From assembly GCA_036172245.1 (NCBI GenBank), contig JAYWIR010000013.1:1-64000 (forward strand): 64,000 nt of DNA. The letters run 5' to 3'. Source of the stretch: Raillietiella orientalis. Its lineage: Eukaryota. The notes beneath the pieces were generated by a model. The model did not search any database. It was not told the DNA's origin and was given only the letters and a program-made list of their open reading frames with translations. Positions 3,520 through 61,002 of this stretch are shown here, one piece after another. Numbering within the stretch: the first letter of the stretch is position 1; each line of letters begins with the position of its first letter. The translations under genes and the position numbers were made by a program.

Positions 3520-5375
3520 GAATCCTTTGCAAGATGTGATAGTATATCCAAGTTGGAATCCCTATACAGGTTCTGATTTCAATTTCCCTTTTGAGAAGAC
3601 CTTTCAATATTTCCATAGCAGGCACCTGGCTCATTCCTGTCCGCATTTTGGCCCTCCTTATCACCATACTCTTGAGAAAGAGGGCGATGGTAGTGCGGAC
3701 CATCGGGTTGTATCGTGGAACGTTGACGTCCCCTTCAAACATGCCAGCGAAAATCTCCATCTTTCGCAACGACTGCAAGTCCATCACCTGCTTTAGACTA
3801 GCCCAGTCTTGGCGCAGAGATGGGCAGGTGAGTACGTGAAGTTAATTTTCTCTGATTCCACAGGCATTGCACTTCTCCTCCTGCGGTTTTCTGGTCAAGT
3901 GTTTGGTCCTAGTGCCGCTCAGGGTGCCACCGTGATGAAACATCAGTAGCTCATCCTGAGTGTCGGGTGGTAAGTCGCTCATCCAGACCGTGGTTCCAAC
4001 CGTCAGCAGTTCCACGTGGCTGCATCCGTATCGGTTGGCGGCCGCAGACAGAGCGTTGTCGTCGTCTGGTTCCTTCATTATTGCTTCCCGTATGTTTTTC
4101 CTGGTTATCAGGAGCCAGCAGCTGGATTCTTGATTGGTCCAAACCTCTCGATATTTGTGGATGAATCTTCCCATTCTCTCCGTAGTTAGCCGATACAGCC
4201 GCATTTTTTGGCGATTGCCACTTAATGAGAACTGCTCGCAGTCCTTTATCGTGATCCTTGGATTCTCGGATATCCACTTCCTGGTGTCCTAAGGGACGTG
4301 TAAAAACCACGGGATAATCCTAAGCATTTCGCTCTCCCAAATTCCTTACTTCTAGGCACTATTTTGAGGTGATGGGTGTTCACCAGTGCATGTTTCCGCA
4401 TCCAAGTGGGTCGATGTTTCTCCACTGTCCTTGTTTGCCTATTAGGGCGAACATCAGGCCTTTCGAATTGTTGACCAGCTGAGAGTAGGCTCTGTGCGCC
4501 GCATAAGGCCAGGCGTCCCATTTGGTGGCAAGATCCAGGATTTGTCGCACGTCCAGCAGGTGGACGGACCGTTTGAGCGATTTCATCCCGGTCCCGCCTT
4601 TGCCTTGCGGTCGGCACAAGAGTTTCAGCCTGACCCGCGGCTTAAACTCCCTCCATAGGATTCTCCGCTGCAGTTGTTCCACCTGCTGGCACGTTCCTTC
4701 GTCCACTCGACAAAAGGCTGCTCCGAAGAGCACCTTAGGAAGGAGAACTCCGTTCCACAGATTTGCCCTTTGCTTCAGGCATAAGTCGAGTCGCACGTAT
4801 TTTGCAGTCTCTTCTCTTGTTTTCCCCAGGATTCCCTTCCACATTTTCTGCAAAGCCGAGGCATCGCCGATGTGGACTCCCACGCACTTGATGTTATCCA
4901 CTACTCGGAATCCTGCTTCCGCTAAGGCGGTAAGGTCCAGGATTCCGATGGACAACAGCTGGGATTTCTGGGCCTTGATCTTCAAGCCCAAACCATTCTC
5001 CATAGATTCGACGACACCAAGGAACGCATGATGATCCTTGCCTTTCTTCAAGAGCAGATCATCCGCATATGCCAGGTGCATCAATCGGTCGTCGTCAAGG
5101 CGAATTCCTTGGATACGGCCGCCATGGTGGACCAGTGACGAACCGCTTCCATAGAAACTACGAACAGCATCGGACTAAGGGCGTCTCCCTGACTGATTCC
5201 CCTTTCCATCCTGATGTCTGCCATATCATTTCTGTTGATTCTTATCTTACAGTACTGCCATTCGAGATTCTTCTCCACATAGTCGGCGAAGTATTCTGGG
5301 TAGCCCAGTTTCCTCAGAACCTTCATCAACATTCCATGGTTCACGGTATCGAACGCCTCTAACGCAGCCCAGCAC
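3520..5375 (-). mobile_element. L1/Tx1-like LINE ORF2 remnant: reverse transcriptase through C-terminal zinc finger
   Basis: AFDTVNH, GISQGDALSPMLF, LAYADDL, ILWREFKPRVRLKLLCRPQGKGGTG and KCNACG in successive frameshifted minus-strand ORFs. The 5' side is broken off by unrelated sequence at about 5375. Confidence 0.88.
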
Positions 5376-5929
5376 GAGATTGTCGTTGTGCGCGTGTGCG
5401 GCGTTGCCGCTGTGCGATTGGTCGCTCCGTATGCTGCGCACGTGCTTCCGACGTCAGTCGATCCCAGCGTTGTTTCGCCGCGGTTTTCCGCGTTTGCAAA
5501 GCGTGCTTCCCGTTGGTGTGTGCGCCTTAGAGCTTGTTCGTTTGGTTTTGCCTCTTTGTCTACTTTTCCTGCCCAGCTTCCTTTCGCGTGTCGTAGGTTC
5601 GATGGACTGTTCTCATCGTGTTTCCGCTTGCTGCTTGTCAACGTTTGTCGCTAACCACCGGTTCTGGAAATTGTGCACTGCTTCCGGCTGTCATCTCGTT
5701 CACGTCTTCGATGCAGGCGCTTTCCTTTCGTCGTTTCCGCCTCCTGTCCTGCATTTTCCCTGCAGGCGGCCTCTTACGTGAGGGAGTAGCTCCTTTACCC
5801 GTTCCTTGGTTAAGTTTGCGAAAATCGTCGTGTGTTCGCGTTGTTTGCAGTTGAATACAGGCTGGAGAACAGGCTGTTAGAAGCAACATTCGTTTCTTGG
5901 CTGAGTTTGCTGACGTCGCGACCATGCCA

Positions 5930-6400
5930 CACTTTACTTCTATGGCATTCTTTCATTGACCTGTATAAGAGAACAACCACTCAGAAACCTTCTCTCCCGT
6001 CCCTAAGCAGTGCTGCTAGGGTGCGATCATCAAGCCGGATAGTCTGTAAAAGACGGCTCCAGCGGTTTCACGCTCAGGGAGAGACGGTATGCCTCGTCAT
6101 CATGGCTGTGCTTTCTCCGAGATTGGAGGAGTTTCGTGAGAATCACACTCTATCAAAGATCCTGATGAAGTATGATTTCACAGATTTAACCTTCTTTCAG
6201 CTGCAAATGGTAGTTTATGTCCTTTGCTGTAGTGTGTAATTATAGATGTTGATGTATTTTGGATCCTTGTTTTTTGTTAATTTGCATATTTTTTGAAATT
6301 TTTTAATGATTTTGCATATATAAAATTTAATTCTCTCTTGTTTTTATTGATTTTTGTTATCTTTTTGTTTTCTGTTTAGTTGAAGTGTTTCGAGTGAAAT
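5930..6400 (+). mobile_element. Possible LINE C-terminus with T-rich 3' UTR
   Basis: Open frame ending near 6240, followed by a long T-rich tract like the other LINE 3' UTRs here; no diagnostic motif. Confidence 0.25.
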
Positions 6401-13670: not shown

Positions 13671-16289
13671 TTGTATATTATTACTTGAAGTTATACTATT
13701 AGTGATTCTTGCAGAATAATAATGGAAATTGGATATGAAGATATGGCAGTTTTGATTTATCGGCTTCCAGTTCGTGATAAAAAAATTTTTTTTACCTTGT
13801 ATGTAACATTCTCATATCATAATATACTTTGATTCTAGCTGACTCGTATGAATGGTTGGTTAAACTACTATTTGTGGTCAAAATTTCCATTTAGAATTGC
13901 TTTTAGAATCTTTCCAGTCATATTTATCATGCAGTAATGTTGAATGAAATGCTTCAAACACCTGTATGTGACAGTTGTATGTCTGATATTTTTACCTTGC
14001 TGATAGCAACTTTTATCTGTTATGTTTTTCGCCAGTTTTTTCTAAAAAAAATGCAAGAATTTATAATGTTAAAATGTAATGTTTACAGTAAGTTTGTTGC
14101 TTTACGTAAAACGAAGAGCAGGATACCCAGAGATAGAACCAATTTAATCAGTTTTTCATCTTCTTCAAGTTGTTAGTCAGTCGTAAATAATAAAAAGATA
14201 ACTGAAGATTGAAAACATTAAATTGTAAATTTCTGCAAAACGATGCTGAATTATACAAAGAACTTGTATCGTGTTTCAAACCGAAATCAGCTGAAATGGC
14301 GATTTGTAAGACTGCGAGCGAACTTGGAAGATGCACTGGTACCTCAGATTCAGCTTCAATTTAGAAGACATTCCCAAATTTTCCGCAAAAGTTATAACCT
14401 TTAGAGTTTGTTTTATTAATAAGAAAGCATCTGTCAATGTCGATTCGTGTACCGTGTCAAAGAGTACCGTTCGTCATCTAGCACATTTTCCATAACAACG
14501 TGCAACGGAAGTTCACTATGACTTCCGTCTGTGTCATCAATGTTTTGATGTGATGTGCATGCAAGTCATGAGTTGCAGCAAAGGACAGTATTTTTTTATA
14601 TTACGTTTTCAGGTCTAGTGAACGTTTGTTGCCAAGTTTTGGCTGTTCCTTCAAGATGCATCGAAATTGATTCATAAATCAGTTTCCTGAGTTTAATGTA
14701 GGGATGCATGCCGAAACAAAAAAGCTGAGACGTTCCCAAACTGCACCCAAGTTTTGACTTCGAAACGGCAGCATAAGTAATGAAAGGATGACTTTGTGAC
14801 ATGTGCACATATAAATCGGGACTTGCGTGAATTCAGTTCTGAAGGTTTCCAAAATGCTGAGAACATTTGTGAAGTTATCCGATTTCATCTATTGTGGTAT
14901 GCATGCCTTCGAAAATGGTGAAACAGCAATTTATTTTGGGGAACAGTTTTCTGATTATTGGTTTGAAAGTAGTCAGGGAACTTAGGTTCCTTTACATATC
15001 TCATGTAAGCATTTAAGGGAATTTCACTAGAACTTTATCTGCTTTGATCACGTTCATTTGATAGCATATTACGGAAACATGAAAAGCAAATCAAAGAGTC
15101 TGTTGCATCAGTCTTACAGATGGTATTTATGAAAAGGAAAAACAAGGATCACTTGTGCGGATTGTGAGTAACCCTATTATTAATATGCATGACCGTTCTA
15201 ATTTGATGAATGAAATTATTGAATTTTCTTGAAATTACAATTTCGCCCCTATCTGAGAATTATTTGTGACCAATCCCAGTATGGGTATAGGTTGTGCTGT
15301 TATTCATTGATGCTTTTTCAGTATTTATCACTAAGGCAGTTTCAACTGAGAGAGAAGTATTCTTTGAATTTAAAAGTGGTTGGCTCCAGTTGTGTTGTTA
15401 ATTTCCACCAGAAGTATTAGTAAGTTGCCTATTGTTGTTAGTAGAGAATATGATGTTTTTCCATTTCATTTTTTTTCATTCGTTTTAACATTTATTTAGT
15501 ATGAATTTCAAACAACTAAGATACCATCCAAGTGTTAAAACCAGTGTCTGTTTTCTCAAAGTAATGGATGATAATTTGATACGTTTGTAATCTCAGAGCA
15601 TACTTTTAAGTTGATCTGACAAATTTTTTTGTGATTCGTTTTTAAAAACTCCATTTGCTTCAAGTAGGGAATGTAATTTTCTAAAAACTTGCTAAATGAT
15701 GTGTAATCATAGTTTTAGGTTTGTTGTAGCCAAATTGAGCCATGCTTGTGGAGCAGTTCTCAGGAAAGCAAAGTTTCTGTATTTCTAAGTGTTCTGGTGC
15801 AAAGCACTGGAATGCTTAAATTTATAAAGTGATTCCCAAGTTGGCATGAGGCTGTTTAGATATGCATTTTTGAAAATAAATTTTCTATTGCTATTATGTG
15901 TGTATTTCATTGAAGCAAAGTTTTGTAAGGAATTGGCCTCATGATGTGCACTTTCATTTGTGTACTCTTCTTGTCATGGATACAAACCAATTTTCCTGCA
16001 TATGCCTGTTTTTTTTACATCTCTTTGGGATTCTTGAGTCAGTGTTAAGTTTAAAGTGATAAACAATTTATGAGGATGCTCATCTTGTTAAGGACATGAA
16101 TAAGGACTTCTGCTATTGGATGCTTTGCAACCTTTTGAATCATTGACAAAGCATTCAAGTGGCGACTTTAAAAATGTTTACCTTTTGGAAACAAGGTTGA
16201 ACCTACAAAATAATAATGAATCCAAAGTTGAAACTGTTGCACGTGTGTGTGTGTGTTTTTTCCAATTACTAATCATGAAGTTCGCAACT

Positions 16290-19518: not shown

Positions 19519-22500
19519 ATGCTGATCTGCTGTTGGTGTTTCCTGCTGGCCGCAGGCCGCTTTGCCATGACAGGTGCGTAATCCCTGTTCCTTGAGATTT
19601 TTGGTTGGGGGTCCGAGTCGGGAGGAGGAGGCTCTCCACCGCAGCTGCTGCAGCACACAGAGAAGGAAGGGTGGTCGCGCCTCTTCAGGGTGCGCATTTC
19701 CCTGTAATCTCGTCCGTGGGAAAGACGAGAAGGAAGGGGGGCGGAGAGGTGGAAGAAAGGGGAAGGCGATCGCTCCACTCATTTTCCCATGGAGGCCCTT
19801 CCTCCTTGGGGATTGCCCCCTCCCCCACACGTCGCCCTTCCAGGTCACGGTTGACTGGTGGACGAAGGAGCAGCAGTCGCGGCAGAAAAGGAGGGGGACG
19901 TCGGAACTCTGGGATTGGAAAGGAGACGCCCCCGAAGAGACGGGCGGACTCGGGGCCCGCGGGCTCCCTGCCCGTCGGTGCAGCGACAACCCTGTCTCCC
20001 CTCCCCCTCCTTACCGAAGTCTTCCTGGCCCTTGGTGTGTGTCCGACGACGTCCCGCTATCTCGCCTGGAAGATGGGAGCCGCCTCCCTCGTTTGTCTAC
20101 GCCTACCCCTCGCCCCCCTTCCCGATCTTTGGCTCCGAAACTGGGAACAGCTCAGGGAAAGGTGGAGCGGGAAGACTGGCGCCATCTGTTCCCCTCCCCT
20201 CCGTTGCGGGAAAAGGGGAAGGGAGCGAGTGAGCCCGCTGGCACCCCCCGGAGGCTGGAGAGGGAGAGTCATAGGAAGTAGAGGCCCTGGGGGCGCTCCG
20301 CGCTGCCAGACAGCGGGCAGCCTCTACGCCCTTCGCTCGGCGGCGGCACTTCTCGCCCGGGGGAGTTCCGGGTCACTCAGAAAGGGAAGGGAGGCAATGA
20401 GGCGAGGGCCGCACGGGTTCCACTCGCGGGTCACCGCCACTGCTTTTTTCTCATATCTCCGTAGCTTCTGCTCTGCCTGGGGCGTGCGCCAACCCCGGGG
20501 CCAAAGGAGGATCACGGGAACGCGTCGGTCCTCCCGCGACCCCGAAATATCTGCTTCCACCGCTGTAGGAAGGCAGCGCCCGCGAGGCAGCCCGCTCCAA
20601 AATGGGCCCCCACGCGCGAACGAGGGAACAAGAAGAGCACTACACCCCATACCCCCTCCCACAGCGCCAGTGCGCGCGCGCGCGCCTCCGGAGGCGAAAT
20701 GGGCATCCCTCCCCCCCCCCTCCCTGGGATGGCCCGAAGCCAATGGGGGGGGGGGGACGGAGGAAGAGGGCGGGTTCGTCGGCAGCGGCGGGGATCTCAC
20801 GCATCATCCACTTTGACCAGACTCCGACCTCCCCCCGAGGCCGGACGGGCCCCATCACCTTGTGCAAGCGCGCCACATGGGCTCCCTCCACCTCATTCCT
20901 TATACGGAGGATCGCCCGATCACTTCCGGGATGCTGCGGGGTGGAGCGCTCTCTCCTTCAAAAAAGGGGGGGGGACCCCGCCGAGCGCACCGGCGCGTGG
21001 GCGGGTGCTGCTTTTTGTCCACGAGGGCCCGCCAAGTGTTAGGAGGCGTTGCCGCCACTGCCGCACCTGTCAGCCGATCCCTCTCCCCTTCCCGGGGGAG
21101 CGCGTCCCGACAGAAATTGTCGGAGCGCCCCCGCTCGCTGCCTCGTGAGGGTCGCAGGGGCGGAGGCACCTGATCCTCCCCCCGCTCCCCCCCCTCCTTC
21201 GTCCGCAGCGAGGCGCTCGCGAGGTAAACGCAGCGTCTCAAAGGCCCTAACCGCTGGGAGGGGGGAGAGAGACGGGCGCGCCTCCGAGACTTGCGGAGGG
21301 GTCCCGGGGGCCCCCCGGTCGAGCTGGGCCCTTCGGTCGCGCACGGACCCAGCAACCCTGCGATCGGTCGAATCTGCCCCGTGCGCGGCCCGCCGCCGAG
21401 TGTCGGGAGGGAGGCGGCCCTCAGCTTTCTTCCCCAGCGTGCTGCTAGGCAGCCCCTCCCCCTTCCGGCGAGAGACCCCCCGCAGCTTGCCGTCCTCGGG
21501 GACTTCCTGGAGGGCTCCCGGGACAGAAGGAGCTCCAGAGCCCCTGAGCACCCCTTCGCCTCTCGAAGGCGGCGGCTTCTCTCCCGGCCTGCTCCTCTCC
21601 CCTTTTCCAGGCCCCCTCCTCGCCGGGGCGGAGGAGGAGCCCGCGGCGGTAAACCCTCACTGCCTGACCAGGAGTGCCTGCCTCGAGGGCCGGCGGCCAA
21701 GCGTCCCCAGCGATTTGGACAGGATCCGCGGGCTGCTCGAGCAGAGGTCCCTACGGGACGTGCATATGGGGGCCTTCCTGATCCCCAGTGAGGACCACCA
21801 CCAGGTAGCCCGCGCGATCCCTGGCGCGAGTCACTCCCTGACCCCGTGACCCCGCAGATGCAGTCGCTGGATGAGTGCGACGCCAGACTGAGGTACCTCA
21901 CCGGGTTCAGCGGAGGCCTCGGGCTGGCGGTGGTGTCTCCCGACCACGCCCTCTTCTGGACCACCGGTCGGCACGCGGCCCTGGCGGACCTGGAGTTGCC
22001 CTGCGAGTGGACCATCTGTGTCTCCCCGACCACGGTAGGCGCCTCCTTCCTTAGGAGGGAGAGAGAGAGGTGGTGATGGTGTTCTTCCCCCCTCTTCCCT
22101 CCCCCTCCTGCTGTTGCCTCCCCACCCGCGCGCTCCACTTCCGCCCGGAAGGCCTGCGGAGGAGCGACCGGTCGCGTCCGGCGCCGGTATGGCGCGCCGC
22201 AGACTCCGCCGGAGGGACGGGGTGGGAAAAGACGGCCGCTCGCGAGCAGAGGTCTGGCCGACCACCGGTGCGATGTCTCCCACCCCATCCACCCGCACCC
22301 TCACATCCCCCCCCCCTCCTGCGCGCACGCGATTCCCAGGCTGCCTCGCAGCCGGGAATCGCTCCGATGCTGCTGCCGCCTGCCGTCCGTTTCGCGCAGA
22401 TACTCTGGGAAGGAGGGATGGAAGGGGCGGATGCTGCGTTGCGACTGAGCCCTTCCTTGCTTTCCGTTGCCTACGATCGAGACTCCTCTTCTCGCCTCCT

Positions 22501-25500
22501 CCTTCTTCCTGAAGGTTGAGCAACGAGAATCGTAGGAAGAGCCAAGAGGGGAGAGGAAGTGGGAACGAGCAGCAAGGTGGGGGAAGGCTCCCGCATTGCC
22601 GTCGCTCCCGGGTCAGCGGTTCCGACCCGGATCCCGGCCCGCCCCGGCAGTTGCTGTCGTCAGCAGCTCTGCGTCACTCCTCGTTCATTTCGAGGAGCCA
22701 TTGGATCACTCCCTCCCGCTCATCACTCGGGCCTTTCCTCCCGGACCCGGGGCCCGCTTTCCCTCTGGATTCTTGAGAGGGAAAGGGGCGGCGAACGGTG
22801 GTGGCCCCGAAGGTTTCGCGACCCACCGCGCTGGGTGGGGCGGCTTTCAGGAACAGGAAAAGACCCTCCCTTCTGGGGCCACCGCCGCCTCCGCGCGCCT
22901 TTCGGCTTCCCCCTCGGGCGTGGGCGCGGGGAGATGCCGCGGGTTCGAACGCTCCCCGGTAGCTCCGCTCGTGGCTCACCGAGATCGCTGCGGGGTGGGT
23001 GGGGTCCGTCGCCTCGAGCAAGACCGCCCGCGAAGGACGCTTCATCGCTCGGAGGACGCGCGGCCTCGGAAAGCGTTCCTTGCCCTCTTCTGTCCTCTCC
23101 CCTCCCCGTGCCGCTCTGGGCAGCACTCGATCGTTCGACGGGCCGCCTCCCCTCCCTCCGGTCCCGCGACTGCGGCGGATTGCCGCGACTGAGGAGGGGG
23201 AGGACAGGGATGCGCCCTTTCGTCGGGCGTCCTTTCCGCCCGGGAAGCGTCTCGGCGCCTCGCGCGCGCACGCCGCGGTGGACGCCCCAGGCACCTCCTC
23301 CCGGGGGTCCTGCGCTGCTTCCCTTCGTTCGTTCCGGCACAGCTGCTGCTCTCGTGGCGTCTCCTTGCGAACCAATCGGGGGAAGAGGCGGACCGGTGCA
23401 GGATGGGAGAGCCTTCCTCCTGCTGCCGGGGACAGATGATCCGGAAGCTCGGGGGAGCAAGGCAGTGAGAACAGGGACATCCCGGATTAGCATTTTGCAG
23501 CTGCTTGCGACAGCCTCCGAGAGGCTGCGTGGTCCTCAAAGAAGCTCCGTGTCGTACCGACGTGCCAAGGGAAGAACAGGAAAAAAAAACGAAAACAAGG
23601 GCACGCTCGGGACTGTTAGCACGGAAAAAGTACTACCGGGTTTCTTGGCGACGCGATGGCGAGAGTGGGTTGGTGATCGGGAGTTTCGTCTCCTGCAGAA
23701 AGCTGCAATGCCGTTTGCACGCTTCCGTCGAAGTACTGCGTTTTATTTTCGTCAAAGATTGCATTTGCTTGCACCGGCTTGCCAGGCGGAAGAAGAATCC
23801 GCAGCTGCTTTTCTTAGCTTTTGCGTTCTGCGTTCTGCCAAGCTGCCTTCCACTGCGCACGCAGATCGTCCAGCTATGTCGTTTCGGCTGACAACAATTA
23901 CCGCGGGGGTACCAATCAAACGCGCGCTAATAAGGAACATCCATCGTGACGCAACACTTGCTGTCAACCGAGCGAAAGCACGTTTTTTGAGCTAATTTAA
24001 GCCGTGATTTCCTGCCCCCCCCCCCCCTTCGGTATTGCTGCCAAATCGGCAGTGAAGCATTGTTGCGAAAGCGGGAGCTTTTCAACAATGGTCGAGACAT
24101 CGTCGCAGGATTGGCGGAGGAGATTTTCGCCTTACGGAGTAACAACTGGAGCACACGACACGCACAGGTGCACCGTTATGGACGTACACGTGCATATATG
24201 CTGCTGTGAAATTCCTCGTGAGCACGTGATCGCGGCACTTGCTCTCGGGCAGCGCCCACTTCACCGAAATCTCTCACACGGAAACGCAGCTTCAGAAATA
24301 ACCACGTCGCTCACGCCGGCTGAGAGGCGTCAATTGATTCCAGCCAATAAATTTTTCTCTCCGTGACTTATGAGGGCTTTCTGTCTTCTCGCGTGCGCTT
24401 CTCCTCTTTCAGGCAGTCGTCATTTTACTCCTACCTGCTCCTGCCCCAGTTCCTTTGGCATTCTTTTTATGTTTGTTCTGCTTTCATGCCGCCTGAGATT
24501 TCGCTCTGGCATGAATGGCGTATTTATTTTAAGGTACGAATGCGTTCTCGCTTTTGTTTGACCTTGACGCTGTACCGTCGCTCCCACGTGAATAGCGAGG
24601 TAATTTTGGCTCCTGTTTCTCTTTCTTTTTGCTTTTTTTTCTTTCTTTCTTTGTTTTGCTTTTCACTCGCCTTCTTCCGAAGTCGCGAGAGGGACATCAC
24701 CGATGTTCCAGCGTCTCGAAGACATCCTCTTGAGCTCCAGAACCCTTTCGTTTCGGGGGACGGAAAGGCGAAAAGGGCAGTCGCGTGCGTGTGCGTTCCG
24801 TACCGTAGAAATTCCGCTCGCGCGGAATCGCGCCGGCCAACTGGATTTCGCGCGGCGCGCTTCATTGCGCGCAGGACACCTTGAAGCAGCGTCCGGCCGC
24901 CGCTGGACGGCGCTTTGGCCGACAGGCGAGGGCGCGGCGGTGGTCCCTGGGAGCGGACGAGCTCTCGGCGTCTGCGAAGCGCCCGCTTCCTTCCCTCTCG
25001 TCTTCGCGGCTAGAGGAGGGCTCGCCCTCGGGCAAGCACGCCTGCGGGATTTCTGCGAACTCTACGGAGAGCGCGCGCGCGTGGCGTTTCCTGTGTCGTT
25101 TAGCCTCAGGCGTCAACCTTGACGACGACGTTTCCACCTCTGGGAAAACGCAGTTTTCTGCATGGGACGCGCGCCGCCCTCCCCCCTAGTCCACGTTTCC
25201 TTTCTTCGGGAAGAAGCGCCGCGTTGCCGGGAGAGGGGGAGGTGACAGACTTCACTAATCGCTGTTCCTCCCTCTGCTGACCAATGCCGACTGCTCGCAG
25301 GTCATCTTCCCCCTCCTCCCACTTTTCATATCGGAGTGAATGGAGGGGTGGGTAAAGGAGTCAGGAACAATTTCGCTCTGATCCCAAGCAGGGTAGTAGG
25401 GGTAGGGTGGGGATTTGTTCTCCGACCCAGAGAGCAGACAGGGGCCGCTCCCCATCGTCCGAGTCATGACTACCCTTCTTCGTTCCAGGGCAGCTACTTT

Positions 25501-28500
25501 TCGAGGCAGAGCGTCGAGATCACGCCGTGGCTGGAGAAGAACTTAGAGAAGGGATTCAGGATAGGCGCCGACCCCTTCCTCTTCGATCACCAGACGTGGA
25601 TGAGATGGAAGGAGCACCTGGGTTCGTTCTCCCGAAAAGAGCGCCACAGAGAGACCGCACGCTCTCCCCCTTTCCTTTTTCTATTTACTTTCTTCCCCTC
25701 AGGTGAACGTGACTTCGGGCTGATTCCCCTGAATTTCCACCCGGTCGACAAGATCTGGGAGGACCGCCCGCCGTGCTCTAGCAACGCTATCTACCCTCTG
25801 GATTTGAAGTACACAGGTGACTTTTGAGATGGCAGCACGCACCGAGCTCCCCCGTTCTCGTAACGCGCTCCTGCCTCTCTCTGCGTATCTCGTCGGCGAT
25901 GGTGGAGGACGGGAGAAAAGAGGGGAAGGCTCGAGTCGTGCACCAACCCCCTCCGCACCATCCCGCACCCCGCCTGTTGCCACGGCTAACAGCGTTGTGT
26001 GCCGAGGCACAGCAACAGCACTGCCGCCTCTCGTGCGCTTCCTTTTGGAAGGGGTGGCTGATTCTTTTTGCCTTTCCCCGAGAGCGTCCTCCCCTCGCCG
26101 TCGATCGCAGCTCTCCGGATGAGCGACGCTAACGAAGGGCAAGAGTTCTCCCTCTCTCCCTCATCCTCCCCACCATCGCGGGCCGTCGGAAACGCTTTTC
26201 GCGAGGCACTCTTTGCAACTGTCTCCTTCCCCCCATTCCCTTCCGCCCACTGACCTACCCTTTCCCTCTGGCGCAGGGGAAAACTGGGAGAAGAAGATAC
26301 AGAAGCTAAGGAGGTATATGGAGAGGCACAAGGTGGACGTGGTGGTCCTGAGCGCCCCCGACGAGATCGCGTGGCTGCTGAACCTCCGTGGATACGACAG
26401 CGTGCGCCTGCCTCTGTTCAGGTAAGGGTCAGAGGGCAGGCCGAAGCCGCGCCGCCCCTCTCCGCGGGAGCCCACAGCCGTCCTTCTTCTTCAGGGGATA
26501 CGTGATCGCCGAGAGGAACCGGACCACCCTTTTCGTCGACCTGGAGAAGGTCACCGACGAGGTCAGGCGCTACCTGGACGCCGACAGCTGCCTCGCGGAA
26601 GGGAGCGTCAGCTGCGTGAGGTGCGCGGAACGGGAATGGGGAGAGGGGAGTCTCACCATCCTTCCCCCGCCCCTCCATAAAGGATCCAGGCCTATGGAAG
26701 GGTCCTGAAGTACCTGGACGACAACGAGGTCTACTGGAGGAGGATCTTGTTGCCTGGAAAGCAACATCTCCACGGGGGCACCAGCTTCGCCTTTTACTCG
26801 TCGGTGCGTGAGGTCGCGCAGCGCGAGGTCACCCCGCGCCTTTTCCAGGTCAGAAGCAAGGAAAAGGTCGTGGTCCACCGCTCTCCCGTAGCCCATATGA
26901 TGAGCATCAAAAACCCGAAGGAGCTGCAGGGGATGCAGCGAGCCTCCGTCAAGGACGCGGTTGCCTTCTGCGACTTCATGGCGGCCCTTGAGAATTCCGT
27001 AAGCGGGGGCTCCCGTCCTTCCCCATCCCTCGATCCTTCCCCTCCCTCCCTCCCCCAAGAAGGTCGTAAGACCGAGGGAGGAGGGCGGCGGGAGTGGAAG
27101 ATCCCTTTGTGGCCTCGGCGGCTGGCGGACGGGTGGCCATTTCTTCCTCCTGGCTGCTCCGAGGGGATGACCTCCTCTCCTCCGCTCTCAGATCTCCGGC
27201 GGGGCCGCATGGAGCCATCAGGACGCCGTCGGCGAGCTGAAGACCAGGCTGGCGGTTCAGGAGGACTTCATGGGATTCAGCGTGAACCCCCAGTCGGCCT
27301 CGGGGAACGCCTCCGCGGTGCCAGGGCGCAGCCCGGACAGGTTGCCCGTCGACGGGGGATCTCTGTACCTGCTGGACTTCGGGGCGCAATACAAGGGTAC
27401 CGACACCCTCCGGGGACAGCTGCGGGAGTCTTCCCCTCCCGCTCTTCTCCGCCCGCAGATGGCACCACCCGCGTAAGCAGGGTCGCGGCCTTCGGGAGGC
27501 CGGAGCCCCTTCAGGCGGAGATGTACACGCGCGTCCTCATGGGACTCATCGACCTCGCCAACCTGACCTTCCCCCTTCAGACGCTGGACCGTGAACTGGA
27601 CCAAGTGGCCCGCAGGCACCTGCACGAGGCCGGGTCGAACTTTCCGCACGCCACGGCTCACGGCATGGGGACGTTTCTGACCCCTGAAGAAGGTTCGTGT
27701 TCCGGTCCCTTCCCACCCCCTCTTCATCCCTGTACGCTTGCAGGGAGCCTGCTCGTGGAGGCTAACGGAGGCAAGGGCACGCCCCTGGAGGAGAACCAGG
27801 TGCTTCTGGCAGGTAACGGAAGATGGGGAGCTGGCCGGACAAAAGCAGGGGTGGGGTCCCCTTCCTCCCCTCGGAACATAAGGGTGTGTGTGAGCGGAGG
27901 AAGTGCGGAGAGAGTGAAGCACAGAGCGGGAAGGGCGGGCCGCTTCCTCTCCCTCCCTTCCCTTCTCTTTTTCTCCACTTTCTCTGTCGTCCAGAGCCGG
28001 CCTACTACGACCAGCCAGCGGGGTTCGGCATCCGACTGGGCAGCACTCTGAAGGTCGTCAAGGTAACCGAGGTCCTCTGCTTTCCTTCGCTCCCCTCCCC
28101 TCTGCCCCTCCAGAAGGCGAAGGACTTCCTGGGCTTCGAGATGCTGACACTGGTCCCGTTCGACCACCGGCTGCTGCAGGTGGAGCTCATGACGTGGGCG
28201 CAGGTGAGTACCCCTGGCCTCTCCCGTCTTTCCCCGACCCCCTTCCCTCCCCTCGGGATGGCAAACTCCACTCCCGACGCGCCTTTGGGTCTTGCAGACG
28301 CGGTGGCTCAACCAGCACAACGCCAGGATCCGCATGCAGGTCGGTCAGGAGCTCAAGCGCCAAGGGAAGACCCGGGCCTTCTCCTGGATGATGTCCAGGA
28401 CAGGCCACGTCTACAGAAACTGCAACGGAGCCAATTTGGCGGACAGAAAGACGACCTCTCTTCTGCTGCTGCTGCTGCTGCCCGCCTTCCTGGCGACCGC

Positions 28501-28516
28501 GGGTTTCCCTCCCTAA
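19519..28516 (+). CDS. Aminopeptidase P family (M24B), XPNPEP2-like secreted/GPI-anchored protein, 699 aa, probably catalytically inactive. Exons: 19519-19573, 21611-21804, 21858-22034, 25489-25621, 25703-25816, 26277-26421, 26495-26620, 26683-26803, 26849-26998, 27192-27396, 27459-27692, 27744-27812, 27995-28062, 28114-28203, 28298-28516
   Basis: All 14 introns are GT-AG with compatible phases, giving 2100 nt with no internal stop. Family motifs: IPSEDHHQ, YLTGFSG, DEIAWLLNLRG, KNPKELQGM, YLLDFGAQYKDGTT, EPAYY..FGIR, FEMLTLVPF, WLNQHN. N-terminal signal peptide MLICCWCFLLAAG (exon 1 is the least certain) and a hydrophobic C-terminal tail LLLLLLLPAFLATAG. Confidence 0.9.
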
Positions 28517-28649
28517 CGACGGCGTCTGAAAGAGCCGCCAAGTCCTTTCCCTCGGGGGGTCCACTCGCGAGAGGCAGTAAACCTCAAGTCAGCGAAGGGT
28601 GTAAACGTGAGAAGGGAGTAAGGGGGTCGCTAGATCGGGATGAGATGGG

Positions 28650-31600
28650 GCACGGGGACGAGAGGAATGGATAGGCGGCTCTTTGCCCAAGTCCCTGCGT
28701 GGTTGACTCTCCGCCCGCAACCCTTCCTTCTGCGGAGGCAGGAGTAGGCGCTCCCCCTCGGGCAAGGAGGAGGGTCACGGCGTCTACGGAGGTGAGGGAT
28801 CGGTGCCGCCTCCCTTCCGCTCTGGTGAGGTGGCTCCTGGCCCAGCTTCCCCTTGGGAGGACGAGAGGAGCAGAGTGGCTCGAAGAAAAGCTACAGAGGC
28901 CCTATTTTGAGGACGATGACGAGGATCCGTTCGACCTGGCTCCCGTTCCTCCGGGATGGCGGCAACGCCGGTCATCGGAGAACTTTGCCGGTCTCCTGCA
29001 GCGGTTGCGCAAACTTCGTTTCCTTCCCTGATCCGACTGGCGGCGGATCAACTCGTTCGGAACACCGCGTGCACGTCAGAACCGAGCGCGCCTGCGGATT
29101 CAAAGTCCGGAGCCGCGGTCCAGTGTTGACCACCTAGTGGATCTCCACGCACGTCTCGACTCGCGCTCGCTATAACCATCTGCGAGTTTTTGCAGGATGC
29201 GCCTGATCTTACAGGCAGGCGCCCTTCGGCGGCCGACGCTGGGTTGCAACATTCTTCCTTGGCACGATTTCCAGGACTTCTGCTACTGCCATATCCTTAC
29301 CTCGGCGCTGTTTTCGTCTTGCCACGGTGCTCGTGATGAAGAAGTCCACTGCTGCTGCTCTTGCCAAAGGGTTGTGCGCAAGAGCCTCTCTGGGAAAGAC
29401 TTCCTCTAAGGATCTCCGTCCTCGTGTTGCATCCGGGGCCACAGTTTCCTCTTATTCTGCAGTCGCGTGCCAGAGCTCGGTGGGCGAACGTGTGAAGCTC
29501 GGTTTTCCTCGCATCTTCCCGGGTCGCGCTCTGAGCACCGGCTTGGGGGCCATCATGCGGGAGACCCTCCGCTGTCAAACCAGTGGGAAGAGCTCATCCC
29601 GTGTTTGCGATGGCAGATCCGCCCTGCAGACCACGTGCTGATCGCTCTGCATTTGGTCCGGGAGCATCCGGCTGTGAGGACTTTTCCTCCATGTCTCTTC
29701 CCAAGCTGCGATCTTTCCGTATCGCTTCCCGGACTCTGCGCGTTTGTTCTCACCTTCCTTTCGGGGGCTTCCTGGTTTCGCAGATGAACTTTCCTCTCGA
29801 GGTCTCCATGAGCCGTGATGGCCTCCTCTAGTTTACGCTCCCCCTCTGAACGAACCGATCGCCGCCTTCCGGTCTGCGACGAATGGAACTGACCTGCTGC
29901 TGAAAGGTGGGACAGGAAGCAGGAAATCTCCAGGGACAACGGAAATCCTCTCGAGTACTTTTCTGATTCGCTGCTTTCCTTCCAGCTTTTTTTTTGTTTT
30001 TTTCTTGCGGGTTTCGGTTACTAAGGTACTACTGAAGCGCCCGAAAGCTCATGAAGCTCTTGAGTGCTCTCCACGCCGCTCGAGGGTGAGTCTTCACTCT
30101 TCAAGTTACGGAGGAGGGACAACCCCGGAAGGACCACCATATGAATCAAGGAAGACTCCAGAGGAAGGAGTCCGTTCCTCTAACGCTTAATAAGCATCCG
30201 GGGTTTCCGTCTTCCATCAGTGCCGCTCTAGAAACACACTGGCCAACCAGTGTCGTCCTGCGGTGGAACTCGTAAACCCATGTCGCACCCATTTCTCGAC
30301 GTCAATTTTCCAAGTGGGGACTCGAACCCACAGGACGCATTCATTGTTTTTCAGGGGGGGAACAAGCAAACCCTCAAAAAATGCCTTGCTGCCCAGGATA
30401 GTCTGTGCAGATTCCGCAACACCGCTTTCTTGTGTGAGGTCTCTATGCGTTTTCACCAACAAGAGTTGAACTCTTCCGGACCAGCTCCACTTTTGTGTCC
30501 CTCCCTCCCCTCCCGATCACCAGCGTCCCCTTTCTTCTGCTTCTCGCTGGAGCAGTTGGGCATGCCTTTTCCACTTGGGGGCTCTGGCCCGACCTCACAG
30601 TTCTCTCCTGGACGCAGCATCTCCGACCGCACCACCACGTAATCGCGCTGGATGGTCTTCACCATTCTTCCTGGAGCGGTGCCCTCTGACGTTCCTCGCG
30701 CTCCTGGCAAAAGGGGAACCTTCGCATTTTTCGTCTGGTGGTCTCTCCTTCAGCTTCCTCTCGGGAGGCTGCCGTTGCCTCCCGTTCGCGCCGCTCGCCC
30801 TTCTTTCACGTCACCTTTTAGACTACGCGCCGAGGCTCTCGCTGTCTTGGTCAGCCTAGGGAAGCGTTGTCCTGGGTCTGCCGTTCGGTTTGGAGTGGTG
30901 CCCGCCGTGGCCAGGCGTGTAGGAGAATGCGCATCACGGGATCGGCTTTTCCTGGCTCCTTCTTCCCGCTCCTGCTCCCGGTCTTTCCCACTCCTCGGCT
31001 CTAGAGGGTTCACCCAAATGCTGCTTGATTTGCCCGTTACTTGTCGCAAGACGACCCGCCGGCGTCTTCAATGCAGGCTGCCCCTCCTCTCCCCTCATCG
31101 CCTCTTCTTTCCGCTCCGAAGAACTTCGCCTCCCTGGTAGCGACTTTTTCCGTCGCAGCTTCCCTCCTCGTCTCTTCCGGCTCGCTCGCTGGCGGAAGGA
31201 TGATCTCCGGAGGGATGGTCGCTGGACTTACTTACCGCCATTCTCTTCGAGTGAGGCTTGACTCCTCCCGCTTCACCTTTTTCTCTATCTTACTCTCCGA
31301 TGGGGAGGGCATTGTCGCGCCTTCCACTTCCGCGAACGAGCGCCGCTGCGGTTTCCGTTAGTTTCACTTAAGCGCTTTCCTCGTTAGGCTGCAGAAGCGT
31401 CACTGCTGCGCAGGGACGCACGCGGGAAGTGACCCTGCTGACCACAACGACAGCTCCTCGCCGTAAGGCGAGCCCCGACTCTGTGGCCTAACCACATTAG
31501 TTGCACCTCGTATAGAGGATTCTCCGGCAGTGGTGCGTGGAGGAAGCGAGTAAACGCGCGCTCACAGCAGGCATATGGATGTCCACCCGGGAGAAAAAAG

Positions 31601-48100: not shown

Positions 48101-51100
48101 TTTGCTTTTCCAGCCGTTCCATAGCTTTCCCATTCGTCTGAATGGGAAACTTACCAGTTTCTGGTATCCCTTCCACACATACTTCTAGGAGATTTATTCG
48201 CGAAGGAAAACTCCACGTTTATGAGCATTCCGACAATGAGAAAAGGGAGACAGCATAGGGATCGTATCGGGACTCACAGGAAGCAGACGCGCGTTTCACT
48301 CCGACAACTTCCTTTGTGCAGTTCACGTGTCCCCTACCGTCCCTGGTGCCCACCTCGGCAGTAAGCATCCAGACGTGCGTTTTCCCGATGATTCCCTCCT
48401 TACCGAATGTCCCAGCAGCCGGCGCAGCAGCAAGCGATCCCTGGGGCACCGTCTCTGGCAGCATCGTTCCCAATCTAGGAACCTCCGCTGGAGTCGGAAA
48501 GACCGCCGCTTCGCCGATCCGAATCTTCGCTCTTTCCAGCGTGCGGACTCCTCGCACGATCCCGCTCCCATGCTGCGCTCGCAAAGAATGCCAGAAGGCA
48601 GGTCAGGAAGAACAGGCGGTGCCACTGCCGCGACGCTTCGTCGACGCTTCCCTTTCTGTCCGCTTGACCAACGGGCTCACGCGCTCCCTGCGTGCACGGT
48701 GACCGTTCTTCCCGCGAACCAACGGAGCTTCTTCCTTCCGCTGCTCGGCAATTCGCAGACGTCCGAGACTTTAGGTCTTTGTCTCCAGTTCGTAAACTGC
48801 CCACGCCCGCAGCATCCCGAAAGATCGCTTCCATCTCTTCGTGCCCGAACGCGTTCCAACGTGCGTGGGGCAGCTGCGAGCCTGGACGGACGGGGTCCTC
48901 GCCCTTCTCTGCAATCTTCCATCGGTCCTCTGTCTCCTCTCCGGGGATGCTGGGTTTCCCAGCACGGCTCTCCTTCAGCCCCCATTCCGATCACGGGTGG
49001 GTGCGAAGTCCTCCCTACTGACGAGAAATGCCGAACATCGCCTTCTTCGCGTCTTCCCTGCTGTCTCCCGCGGAGATGGTCCCTCTCCTGCTTGGAGCAG
49101 GGAGCGGTTGCGAATCCGCCTGGAGCGGGAGGCTGGCTCTGGGACATTCCAGGAAGCCCAGGCAGCGCGTTTCAGAATCGCTCGCGTCCCTTTTGCATGC
49201 AAATGGGGGCGTGGGAACATGTGGCCGACGTGTCCGTGAAGGGTGCTCCATCCTCATGGTTTCCGCACGGAACAAACGCGTAGGATGCCTTTCGTTTCGC
49301 AGCGGGGTTGTTGTCACGGAGACGGTTCGAAGGAACGCGCGAGAAAGCGTCCGCGTGAGGCGACGGAGCCGCCTCCCGGTCGCGCAAGCACTTCCTCCAA
49401 CATCCAGAAAACGGGTACTCACTGTGACCGAATCCTGAGAAAGAAAACCCGACATCGCTCCTGAGCCATACTGAATAAAAAACGGGTAGCCAATTTTTTG
49501 GTAGGTCAATGACTCGTCGCCATGGAATCGCTTGATGTAGGCTGAAAGCATGAAGAACTTTGTTGAAGGATGTTGTACATCTGATGTCTGTTACCACAAG
49601 ATTCTTGAAATAGGAAGCAGTATTTTCCTCGCAACCACAGGTCGGAAGAGCCAGTGTCCAGCAGCATATGGAATGTCTGCGGTGGTGTTCCCACCTGAAT
49701 TATCCCGGTGTAAGCGAACTGAATTGAGAGAAGAAAAAAAAAGAAACAATTAGTTGGTGGGAAGTTCCAGCTGCTTTGCATTTATTTAATGAGCAACAAC
49801 ATCCACGCCTTGGGAATCCTCACTGCTTCCTGCATTGCAGTGGGCCTCAAAGCCAACTCTGCAGTAAACTGTGAGGTGTCTTTTAATTTCGCTCACACCA
49901 AATCTCGAGATGAAACTAGTCTCACTCTATGCTAGCAAAGAAGGTCAATTTTAAATTTTGAACCAACTCAGAGTTTGTCCCAGTCTTCTTTGTTAGCCCA
50001 CAACCACCACAACAAAAGTTTAAAGTGTCTGATTGGCCGTCCAATTTCAGCAACGGTATGTTTCTCTTACGTTTTGGTTATTATGAAGCACGATGCTCCC
50101 TGCGAAGCTGGTGGAGCTCCTCTCCTGATGCGTGACTGACATTTCGATCCCTCTGTGGGAGTACCTGCTCCTCTGCAGCAGCGCCATCCTGTTCAAGTGC
50201 TCCAGCGTCTGCACGCCCTTTTTGGCTCTCGTCAGCGGGATGCTAACGCTGGGGGTGGACAACAGGCAGAGTGTGACGCCCTGTTCCCGTAGCGCGTGGG
50301 TGTCGGAAACGGAGAGGACCACGCACCCCGCGTCTGTCGCTCGCCATCTCCACATCGCGCATGCCCGGGGCGCCGGAAAGGGGGTCGACCGGGGGGTGGG
50401 CGGCGACGAAATGGTGGAGTAGTTCTCGCACCACCTTCCAGCACAGCTCCCAGCCCACCGCTCTGCCGAGCTGCGAGTCGGACAGCGCCCCTCCGGATGC
50501 GCGTGAGCCGGTGTGGTGCGGTTTGGCGCTCACGTGGTTCCGGACCAAACGCGGCGCGCTCCCTTCCACGACCACGCCGCCGAGACTCCGGTGCACAGAA
50601 AGCTACACCGTCTTCACGGGACTCGCCGCGTCCCGACGTCCGCGGAGGGACACCTCGCGCGTCCGTCGTCGGAAACGCGTCGCTTGCTTGCTCGTCGTCG
50701 GGACAACGGGATCGCGGAGCACCCGGTGCAGAGGCCGACAGCGGATGGCAGGAATTTCTGCACGGCCGGCGGCAAGCGGAAAAAGTGGCGGAGAAGGAGT
50801 CCGTCTTCCCGGTACGCAAAGGAGCGCCTTTGCGTACCGGGAAGAGAGACGTTTCGGCGACCGACGCGACCTTCCTGCATCCGCAAAGCGTAGGATGCTT
50901 CGGAAGTGCCGAGGGAGCGCCCGGATTCCGGCCGGAAGTGCTGTCTCCGTCAAGCGTCGGTGGTTGCCGGGGAAGCACAGCAGCGTCCGTCGCGGGCGCT
51001 CGGGTATTTCGAGCGTCAGGAATCGCGCGCCGGCCGCGCGGTAGGAAGGAGGAGGGGGGCACGAAGGTTTACCTGACTCCAGCATGACGACCGTGTGCCC

Positions 51101-59671: not shown

Positions 59672-59955
59672 AGGGTATTCATGAGATGGAGCCGGTATGA
59701 AGTTCATATTTCAATCCTGAGATCAAAAAATGAATTAATGACGTCGGTGGAATAGTTGCGGAAAGTGTAAGGGATAGTGGGAGGAGGGGTAGCGGGAGAA
59801 GATTGGCTGATTCAGTATCGAAAATTAAGATGATTGTAGCTACGAAGAATTGGACAGAGAACGTGAAGCGCGCATTGTTTTTTGGATCAAATCCGCATTC
59901 GAAGGGAGTTCAGGTATTGTAATTCAATTGGGATGTAGTTTTTTTAATGATTATT

Positions 59956-59986
<31 letters not shown>

Positions 59987-60020
59987 AGTGATAAGAAAAA
60001 GAGATGGTAAAAGTACTATT
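59672..60020 (-). pseudogene. nad3: mt NADH dehydrogenase subunit 3 pseudogene
   Basis: [21 protein letters not shown] and GLKYE..GSISW motifs; frameshift at a (TC)n run at 59956-59980. Confidence 0.88.
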
Positions 60021-60030
60021 CCTTAATAGA

Positions 60031-60084
60031 AGGGACAAAATGGTACGCCACTGTTGAGGGATCAGAAGTCCCTGATGTTGTCTC
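60031..60084 (-). tRNA. trnS1: mt tRNA-Ser1(UCU), D-armless (NUMT copy)
   Basis: Acceptor GAGACAA/TTGTCCC; anticodon stem AGGGA/TCCCT; loop CTTCTGA; T-arm AGTGG/CCATT. Confidence 0.75.
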
Positions 60085-60130
60085 ATTGTGTGGAGTGCAG
60101 CTCTAAGATATTGTTTGGAATTATTAATAA

Positions 60131-60180
60131 AATTAGAAATTTTTGTTTGCAAAACAAATGTTATTATTTTGAGTATAATT
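60131..60180 (-). tRNA. trnA: mt tRNA-Ala(UGC), T-armless (alternative reading: Cys on +)
   Basis: Acceptor AATTATA/TCTAATT; stem TTTGT/ACAAA; loop TTTGCAA; D-arm poorly paired. Confidence 0.45.
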
Positions 60181-60184
60181 TTAA

Positions 60185-60243
60185 TTGTCTTTTGAGTTTA
60201 TGTAGAGCGAAGCGTTGAAAGTGCTTAGGAAATAATGGACGGT
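60185..60243 (+). tRNA. trnF: mt tRNA-Phe(GAA), T-armless, opposite strand (NUMT copy)
   Basis: Anticodon stem AAGCG/TGCTT; loop TTGAAAG; D-arm GTTT/GAGC; wobble-rich acceptor. Confidence 0.65.
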
Positions 60244-60253
60244 TGATAGAGAG

Positions 60254-60307
60254 TTTGAGTTGGGGTAATTTTTATCATTAACAGGGATATGCTCAGGCTG
60301 AACTCAA
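60254..60307 (-). tRNA. trnN: mt tRNA-Asn(GUU), T-armless (NUMT copy)
   Basis: Perfect acceptor TTGAGTT/AACTCAA; stem TATCC/TGATA; loop CTGTTAA. Confidence 0.65.
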
Positions 60308-60360
60308 ATTCGTAAAATTTTTATCTTGAAGGGATAATGTGTTGTTTACACTAAAAGAAC
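60308..60360 (-). tRNA. trnE: mt tRNA-Glu(UUC), T-armless (NUMT copy)
   Basis: D-arm GTGT/ACAC; stem TTATC/GATAA; loop CCTTCAA (U33 apparently mutated). Confidence 0.6.
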
Positions 60361-60415
60361 TACTCTTTATTTCTTAATAATTGGAAGCTATTTGTACTGC
60401 ATGTACTAAAAGAGT
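60361..60415 (-). tRNA. trnG: mt tRNA-Gly(UCC), T-armless (NUMT copy)
   Basis: Acceptor ACTCTTT/AAAGAGT; D-arm GTAC/GTAC; stem AATAG/TTATT; loop CTTCCAA; TV-replacement loop. Confidence 0.82.
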
Positions 60416-61002
60416 ATGTTCATAAGTATATGAATAAAAATAGGAACAATCATACAATGTCTACGAAATGCCAATGCCAGAGGGGGAGTTCGAATGATAG
60501 ATGATGAAGGTGAGTGATGGAGAGTGTAAAAATATTTGGGTTATGGATGAAGTAAGGCAGATAAGTCCGGCAAATCCGTGTAAACCGTGGAATCCTGTTG
60601 CGATGAAGAATGTTGAAGCAAAAATTGCATCTGTAACAGAGGATTCAAGTATGGAGTATTCTATGGCTTGAGTTGTGAGAAATATTAATCCAATTGTGAT
60701 AGTATTAAGTAGGGATAAAAAGGAGGAGGAATCATTTTTTTTGAAGAGAGAGTGATGTGTTGATGTTACTGAGATATCTGATCTTCGCAGGAGAATGGTG
60801 TCAAATAGAGGCACTTCTATGGCGTAGGGTAGGGCAAGATTGGGTGGAGGTCAGGAACATCTAAATTGTGGATTGACTCTTAGTATAGAACGGAAGAACG
60901 ATCAAAAGAAGGAAACGAATGAAAAAATTTCCGAGATAATAAATATGACTATAGTTTTCATTATTTTTATTGGGAGGATACCTATAAATGAGGATTCTCA
61001 TC
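60416..61002 (-). pseudogene. cox3: mt cytochrome c oxidase subunit III pseudogene (5'-truncated)
   Basis: FIISE..F.SFFW, WPP, PLFDTILL, QAIEY, STFFIATGFHGLH and WHFVDIVWLFL; frameshift near 60480. Confidence 0.93.

Follow-up and report, generated by a model that had tools for sequence, protein, structure and literature searches.

What does the aminopeptidase-like gene near the start of contig JAYWIR010000013.1 of Raillietiella orientalis (assembly GCA_036172245.1) encode, and is its product likely to be an enzyme? The window analyzed here, the first 64,000 nt of that contig, carries at 19519-28516 on the + strand a gene of 15 exons and 14 introns, which with its exons joined by phase gives a 695-aa product. 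This product is a homologue of aminopeptidase P (APP), apparently of the membrane type represented by XPNPEP2, in which key residues of the active site have been replaced in a frame that is open from end to end. We consider it probable, judging from the sequence features described below, that the gene specifies a non-catalytic cell-surface protein, retained as a "pseudo-APP." Its parts are as follows.

19519..19573, + strand: exon 1, with the start codon, the signal-like MLICCWCFLLAAGRFAMT and then a split Gly codon; donor CAG/GTGCGT
21611..21804, + strand: exon 2, mature N-terminus and onset of the Creatinase_N-like domain I; phase-consistent AG/GT borders, tblastn match of P0005
21858..22034, + strand: exon 3, domain I; Pfam Creatinase_N at E 3.5e-4 and 21.5 bits, slightly below the 22-bit cut-off; matched in tblastn by 6/6 homologues
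25489..25621, + strand: exon 4, preceded by a 3454-nt intron; tblastn match, colinear alignment
25703..25816, + strand: exon 5; tblastn match and alignment
26277..26421, + strand: exon 6, onset of domain II (Creatinase_N_2); Pfam PF16189, E 1.9e-15
26495..26615, + strand: exon 7, domain II; Pfam PF16189, E 0.0024; donor TGC/GTGAGG set by the frame
26690..26803, + strand: exon 8; from alignment and model
26804..26848, + strand: putative mini-intron of 45 nt, in frame (GTGCGT...TTCCAG), whose retention would add 15 residues
26849..26998, + strand: exon 9, onset of the catalytic domain; aligned with residues 312-349 of PDB 3ctz
27192..27396, + strand: exon 10, with Gly 27324-27326 (H243/H395 column) and Asp 27375-27377 (D260/D415 column); Pfam Peptidase_M24, E 4.9e-5
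27459..27692, + strand: exon 11, with Arg 27470-27472, His 27647-27649, His 27659-27661 and Glu 27686-27688; phmmer alignment with 3ctz
27744..27812, + strand: exon 12, the last base of which opens the kept Glu codon (E383/E523 column); from model and alignment
27995..28062, + strand: exon 13, with EPAYY in place of the usual EPGYY, and Gly 28039-28041 (E406/E537 column)
28114..28203, + strand: exon 14, first part of Peptidase_M24_C; Pfam PF16188, E 1.3e-5
28298..28516, + strand: exon 15, rest of Peptidase_M24_C, RNCNGAN, LADRKTT, the hydrophobic tail (28457-28513) and the stop codon TAA; Pfam PF16188, E 7e-5

How was this exon structure arrived at? The first phase-joined model had 14 exons and 710 aa, with GT-AG borders at every intron, and relative to 7 aligned homologues it contained a private insertion of 15-16 residues bounded by GTGCGT and TTCCAG. 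Because its excision closes a gap seen in all 7 of these homologues, the 45-nt in-frame stretch at 26804-26848 is most simply read as an intron; introns of only 51-53 nt occur elsewhere in the gene. Since the stretch is in frame, both the 14-exon (710 aa) and the 15-exon (695 aa) forms are open, and the active-site finding is the same under either. The coding sequence (CDS) of the 15-exon form is 2088 nt long and free of internal stops, and all 14 introns run from GT to CAG, with pyrimidine-rich tracts ahead of the acceptors. The intact 15-exon frame described by the first-pass annotation therefore holds, with no stop and 14 of 14 splice pairs in place. Searches of the whole window by tblastn with 6 homologues matched exons 2-15 in order and found no second M24B gene. 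Exon 1 was the best of 72 upstream ATG...GT phase-1 candidates by hydrophobicity and donor quality. No missing exon was found in the 3.4-kb intron, across whose junction the alignment is colinear, and no tandem repeats were found in the gene region.

The order of domains is that of an aminopeptidase P. Pfam searches of successive exon frames between 21.6 and 28.5 kb recovered Creatinase_N, Creatinase_N_2, Peptidase_M24 (E 9.5e-09 and 4.9e-05) and Peptidase_M24_C in that order; several of the scores lie below the curated cut-offs, the domains being split by introns. These four M24B-type domains span the whole of the 695-aa product, there is no eTudor fusion, and the three-domain M24B architecture is present in full. 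At the N-terminus, in an exon modeled from sequence only, the stretch LICCWCFLLAAG has a mean hydropathy of 2.38, and 12-residue Kyte-Doolittle means at this signal-like end range from 2.38 to 2.57. The C-terminus consists, in order, of the small-residue stretch RNCNGAN, the spacer LADRKTT and the tail SLLLLLLLPAFLATAGFPP, which averages 1.83 in hydropathy over 19 residues and is preceded by RNCNGANLADRKTT. Small residues, a polar spacer and a hydrophobic tail are the layout of a glycosylphosphatidylinositol (GPI) signal, and we regard this end as GPI-like; the hydrophobic tail reported earlier is thus present and comes with the expected surroundings. The predicted protein has 3 N-X-S/T sequons and 13 Cys residues.

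Where does the protein fall within the family? Full-length identity to its homologues is 30-35%, the best blastp match being P0008 (35.2% over 662 residues, E 4e-126). Source names were available for 16 of the 20 matches looked up, and these were mostly arthropods: an ostracod, a scorpion, a mirid bug, a water flea, a bee, a mosquito and shrimps, together with a tick, a damselfly, a sea louse and a mite. The other named sources were two echinoderms, a horsehair worm and a monitor lizard, the last annotated as XPNPEP2. A FastTree phylogeny of 59 rows (the model, its 55 best blastp matches with alignments of at least 520, and three added degenerate rows) separated XPNPEP2-like from XPNPEP1-like proteins with a support of 99 and placed the model with P0025 (support 95). 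A quick IQ-TREE analysis of 35 rows gave the same split, again at 99, and grouped the model with a tick, a scorpion and P0025 (support 91). Both trees put the model among the XPNPEP2-like, membrane-type proteins, alongside the annotated XPNPEP2 P0024; its position among them is soft. The ends of the proteins follow the same division: among the 28 rows on the XPNPEP2-like side, the model included, 20 have a hydrophobic C-terminal tail and 17 a hydrophobic N-terminus, whereas the corresponding counts among the 31 rows on the other side are 0 and 1. The membrane-type assignment made in the first-pass annotation is supported both by the split and by these clade-typical ends.

An origin from a vertebrate XPNPEP2 was considered and rejected, as the nearest named homologues are from arthropods and the ratio of observed to expected CpG lies between 0.66 and 1.15 in every 2-kb bin, without depletion of the vertebrate type. 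Both features, together with the code used by the mitochondrial piece described below, indicate that the DNA comes from an invertebrate. Across 18-30 kb the window has a guanine-plus-cytosine (GC) content of 0.57-0.69, and it is eukaryotic and GC-rich.

Which catalytic residues remain? We aligned the model (MAFFT) with 126 homologues, namely 124 of the 150 listed representatives, those of at least 450 aa (the 26 shorter ones were excluded), and two cluster members. Sites are given by E. coli and human residue numbers; the human numbers D426, H485, H489 and H498 derive from an alignment with the XPNPEP1 structure 3ctz, and the other equivalents we take to be H354, H361, E383 and E406 in E. coli and D415, H395, E523 and E537 in human. 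At the eight site columns 102 of the 126 homologues show the pattern H D D H H H E E, in place of which the model has G D R H H E E G. The remaining homologues comprise 8 rows that differ by gaps only and 16 that are substituted, two of the latter being isoforms of one tick gene. In the H243/H395 column the model has Gly (GGG, 27324-27326), where 115 of the 126 homologues have His. Arg (CGC, 27470-27472) occupies the D271/D426 column, which is Asp in 121; Glu (GAA, 27686-27688) stands in the H361/H498 column, His in 118; and Gly (GGC, 28039-28041) fills the E406/E537 column, Glu in 115. Retained are the Asp of the D260/D415 column, both His of the H350/H485 and H354/H489 columns, and the Glu of the E383/E523 column, whose codon is split between 27812 and 27995-27996. 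Neither Arg at the second-Asp column nor Gly at the last-Glu column occurs in any of the 126 homologues.

Comparison with solved structures gives the same picture. In a phmmer search, exon 11 aligned with residues 423-497 of human XPNPEP1 (3ctz) at E 1.1e-08, so that GTTD426 corresponds to GTTR, H485-G-T-G-H489-G to HATAHG and V-H498-E to P-E-E. The four substitutions originally proposed (D271 to Arg, E406 to Gly, and loss of H243 and H361) are therefore confirmed against both the structure and the 126 homologues, with their codons verified, and the claim that the D260, H354 and E383 equivalents are kept is likewise confirmed in the alignment.

Could errors of sequencing or assembly, or a mistaken exon model, have produced the substitutions? 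What favors that explanation is that exon 1 and the 45-nt intron come from the sequence model. However, at all four sites at least two nucleotide changes separate the replacement codon from every codon for the usual residue, which single-base sequencing errors do not explain, and 24 further conserved columns also differ. The exons that bear the sites are matched by tblastn with 6 homologues, the flanking motifs align gap-free, and none of the nearby alternative splice sites restores canonical residues. We consider an artefact extremely improbable.

Where the metal ligands are normally Asp, Asp, His, Glu and Glu, the model has D, R, H, E and G, so that two of the five are replaced, and both substrate or proton-shuttle histidines (the E. 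coli H243 and H361 equivalents) have given way to G and E. Of the five ligands, those that bridge both metals are, we take it, the second Asp and the last Glu. If this assignment holds, His and Glu remain at one site and only an Asp at the other, and a normal dinuclear metal centre should for that reason be unable to form; the earlier view that the active site is dismantled is supported to this extent. Mutagenesis of the E. coli enzyme offers a functional reference: PMC10377022 numbers D260, D271 and H243 in that enzyme, divides the metal ligands as "DEEH / DDE" over two sites, and quotes experiments in which a change of D260 or D271 inactivated it and H243A abolished activity.

Might the site instead be remodeled but active, as a mononuclear or metal-free hydrolase, or for other chemistry that relies on the retained Asp, Glu and two His? 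The equivalents of D415, H485, H489 and E523 are indeed retained, and a possible single metal bound at a His plus Glu site has been argued for PID-5, a related protein of Caenorhabditis elegans, in PMC10377022. Against this stand the loss of both bridging carboxylates and of both substrate or proton-shuttle histidines, and the degradation of second-shell motifs in a domain where 23 of 67 conserved columns have changed. Nor is a conserved new constellation of residues evident, there being no orthologues for comparison. A surviving activity of this kind strikes us as distinctly improbable.

How far does the erosion extend beyond the catalytic residues themselves? Columns on which at least 80% of the homologues agree were defined as conserved, and there are 100 of them. 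The model retains 72, the lowest count among the 127 sequences, and the next-lowest counts belong mostly to other proteins with substituted sites. Retention is uneven along the protein: in the catalytic core 44 of 67 near-invariant columns are kept and 23 changed, versus 25 of 28 kept and 3 changed in the two N-terminal domains (Fisher p 0.023). The changed core columns include the Tyr beside the lost His, now Arg, both Gly of HGTGHG (HATAHG here), the Gly of EPGYY (EPAYY), Thr residues of GTTDVTRT, and an upstream near-invariant Glu (99%) and Arg (95%). From this distribution it appears that the pocket as a whole is freed from constraint and that the remaining scaffold is not. The "four targeted losses" of the first-pass annotation are not borne out in that form, the erosion being pocket-wide.

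Is the gene nonetheless maintained? Its coding frame contains 0 stops, as against 29 and 9 when the CDS is read in the two alternative frames; shuffled versions of the CDS had a mean of 19.7 stops, and 0 of 2000 shuffles were stop-free. GC content at codon positions 1, 2 and 3 is 0.61, 0.44 and 0.85, as compared with 0.635 in 6.9 kb of introns, so that GC at third positions (GC3) has a coding-type signature and is not relaxed to the intron level. We also simulated neutral change. By the time 23 of 67 core positions had changed, at approximately 0.2 substitutions per site, the runs had on average gained 8.5 in-frame stops and none of the 1000 was stop-free, and because the simulation ignored indels and splice-site hits it is conservative. 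None of the usual marks of a pseudogene (stops, frameshifts, lost splice sites or relaxed composition) was found. Long-term neutral decay is therefore unlikely, given the absence of stops, the 14 intact splice pairs, the GC3 of 0.85, the 25 of 28 N-terminal columns kept and the 0 of 1000 stop-free simulations. The erosion of the pocket would thus have arisen while selection still kept the frame open and spliceable, a statement that concerns past selection only. Of the earlier view that this is a maintained non-catalytic protein rather than a decaying pseudogene, the argument against long neutral decay stands, the notion that the losses were targeted does not, and the roles it suggested for the protein (binder, decoy or partner of an active APP) remain inference.

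Several points weigh against a maintained protein, and some of them would fit a recent loss of function, with a pseudogene in the making whose frame is open only through lack of time. The lowest conserved-column retention is what relaxed selection would also give, and the terminal branch of the model is the longest in both trees (1.43 versus a median of 0.87 in FastTree, and 1.27 versus 0.74 in IQ-TREE). Its Gly, Ala, Arg and Pro (GARP) content is 28.9% versus a median of 23.4%, and the GC-rich composition may inflate divergence. No orthologue emerged. A word-based protein search with two exon-bearing pieces returned none at E <=0.001, which is weak evidence, and the same kind of search with an exon of a neighboring aspartic protease gene likewise returned nothing at that threshold. 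A search of representatives with a 456-aa frame over three exons gave 2265 matches, none at E <=1e-30 and the best at 106.5 bits; as no match was closer than approximately 50% over the matched stretches, none is an orthologue. Of two metagenome scans the first found nothing, and the second found only two loci, with matches of 18 and 32 residues that are not orthologues. In the 3 kb past the stop codon (28517-31500) there is no AATAAA or ATTAAA, and a lone TGTAA lies 84 nt downstream. Exon 1 is backed by no homologue, and the signal peptide it encodes is predicted from features of the sequence itself. The neutral simulation, moreover, is a rough one: the present sequence serves as its starting point, substitutions follow a simple model, and the ancestor is taken to have carried the consensus residues. 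Finally, the gene would look no different from a maintained one if a long phase as a constrained pseudoenzyme had ended only very recently. On the other side, the erosion of the pocket is old and extensive, yet no stop, frameshift or splice loss accompanies it, no simulated run with equal change stayed open, and third codon positions and N-terminal domains both keep their coding-type character. We therefore judge a recent loss of function unlikely, if less so than a remodeled activity.

Is loss of catalytic residues confined to this gene? Five proteins on the XPNPEP2-like side also have substituted sites: those of Asterias (P0088), Dinothrombium (P0039), Anopheles nili (P0045), Apolygus (P0016) and Amblyomma (P0017). 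Like the model, they carry one to five site replacements, and most combine a signal-like start with a tail; unlike the model, they carry other replacements, and none has R and G at both bridging positions. In the FastTree phylogeny the nine rows labeled as degenerate, a set with four rows from the XPNPEP1 side and without the tick P0017, need at least 8 changes. Given this scatter, the losses are independent and do not define one family with the gene described here. Catalytic loss in the membrane-type branch thus looks recurrent from the alignment and trees, with the present gene as one more, unusually thorough case.

The starfish protein deserves a separate mention. Asterias rubens and Asterias amurensis share a "xaa-Pro aminopeptidase 1-like" protein that falls in one 90% cluster (P0088 and P0155-P0157). 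At the eight site columns it has R D Q H N H G T, its ends are signal-like and tail-like, and it is annotated as an enzyme. We propose it as a candidate conserved echinoderm pseudo-APP.

How does the model compare with systems already described? With the XPNPEP2 type (MEROPS M24B), exemplified by P0024 of Varanus komodoensis, it has in common the three-domain architecture, the side of the tree, the hydrophobic ends and, in the N-terminal half, the conserved Cys positions; identity to P0024 is only approximately 31%, however, and two of five metal ligands and both extra histidines are replaced in the model. The best solved-structure matches are cytosolic APPs (human XPNPEP1, 3ctz; C. elegans APP-1, 4s2r; and Plasmodium falciparum APP, 5jqk), with which GTT(D)VTR and H(G)T(G)HG align residue for residue. 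In contrast to the model, these enzymes fall among the XPNPEP1-like proteins in the tree, have neither a signal sequence nor a tail, and carry intact metal sites. Further parallels come from proteins that have kept the pita-bread fold for non-catalytic roles. The N-terminal domain of Spt16 is one such case, and PA2G4/EBP1 is another; unlike the model, both belong to different subfamilies (M24A-like or single domain) and are intracellular. Homologues without peptidase activity form an accepted class within M24; LmaPA2G4 is described in PMC3888471 as a non-peptidase M24 pseudoenzyme.

The closest precedent is PID-5 of C. elegans. PMC7849312 describes its APP-related domain as likely to be catalytically inactive, its zinc ligands not being conserved, reports that APP-1 is enriched with PID-5, and proposes either that it locks onto proline N-termini without cutting them or that it heterodimerizes with APP-1. 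PMC10377022 calls PID-5 a "pseudo-APP" that retains the His and one Glu and has Gly at the position of the last Glu and Ala at that of H243. By these descriptions, PID-5 and the model are strikingly alike in the loss of metal ligands and of the H243 equivalent, in the retention of His and one Glu, and in the change of the last Glu to Gly. They differ in that PID-5 is cytoplasmic, of XPNPEP1/APP-1 descent, fused to eTudor and located in germ granules, whereas the model is a stand-alone, XPNPEP2-type protein with secretion and anchor-like signals and has Arg in place of Asp where PID-5 has Asn or Gln; the comparison is by description only. Within the open-access literature searched PID-5 was the one direct precedent for a dead aminopeptidase P, and no description of a GPI-type one was found there. 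The kind of protein is thus ordinary, as pseudo-peptidases are common and a dead APP is already in print, and its putative surface-anchored form is new to that literature.

The surrounding sequence has a low gene density. A Pfam scan of 226 frames outside the gene (225 of at least 100 aa and one of 91 aa, shorter open reading frames being excluded) gave only reverse-transcriptase, aspartic-protease and COX3 matches, and ARAGORN found no tRNAs in the window. A full-length U3 small nucleolar RNA gene lies at 5976-6179 on the - strand (Rfam RF00012, 93.3 bits, E 3.1e-19, model positions 1-219). Just upstream of it, at 4383-5650 on the same strand, is a decayed retroelement with two overlapping RVT_1 frames (E 3e-07 and 9e-04). 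An AT-rich block with a GC content of 0.34 occupies 14001-16000 in a window that otherwise ranges from 0.47 to 0.69. Exons of a cathepsin D-like A1 aspartic protease, with the active-site motif DTGSS, are located at 49018-49781 (- strand; Pfam Asp E 1.3e-13 and 7.7e-07), their best solved-structure match being cathepsin D. A piece of mitochondrial DNA, with cox3 followed by nad3 (E 2.8e-11), is found at approximately 59680-61010 on the - strand in nuclear-looking sequence. Its cox3 (Pfam COX3 E 1.1e-34, table 5) has the last 40 profile positions in another frame, which marks a frameshift, and the piece reads better with the invertebrate mitochondrial code, in which AGR is Ser. It is probably a decaying nuclear mitochondrial insert.

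What might a non-catalytic cell-surface APP do? On the reading that we prefer, the product would be secreted and probably GPI-anchored, as a member of the XPNPEP2-like branch that has kept the pita-bread scaffold; with the metal centre and proton shuttling lost, it would no longer cleave peptides. It might hold Xaa-Pro N-termini without cutting them, or it might pair with an active APP subunit through the dimer surface of the catalytic domain, as proposed for PID-5 and APP-1. We do not rank these two roles. The second has the analogy with PID-5/APP-1, and the first is weakened by the breadth of the pocket erosion. That the Arg could fill a vacated metal site, as suggested in the first-pass annotation, is plausible chemistry. 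A more specific version of the idea is a metal-free, GPI-anchored "reader," in which the Arg in the vacated pocket would be salt-bridged to the kept Asp and Glu and the protein would act at the cell surface on Xaa-Pro peptides, for instance kinin- or tachykinin-like hormones, as a receptor, a decoy or a regulatory partner. In that scheme it would be one case of a recurrent, undescribed conversion of invertebrate membrane APPs, seen also in starfish, mite, tick, bug and mosquito. We offer this version tentatively and hold it doubtful as a whole, though somewhat less so than a recent loss of function.

Membrane aminopeptidase P inactivates proline-containing peptide hormones at the cell surface. 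A protein with its scaffold and anchor and without its chemistry could bind such peptides while leaving them undestroyed, or could tune an active partner. A single sequence is a modest addition on its own. Together, however, this gene and the 16 of 126 homologues with substituted sites suggest that catalytic loss has been recurrent in animals, and public annotations as "Xaa-Pro aminopeptidase" seemingly overstate activity.

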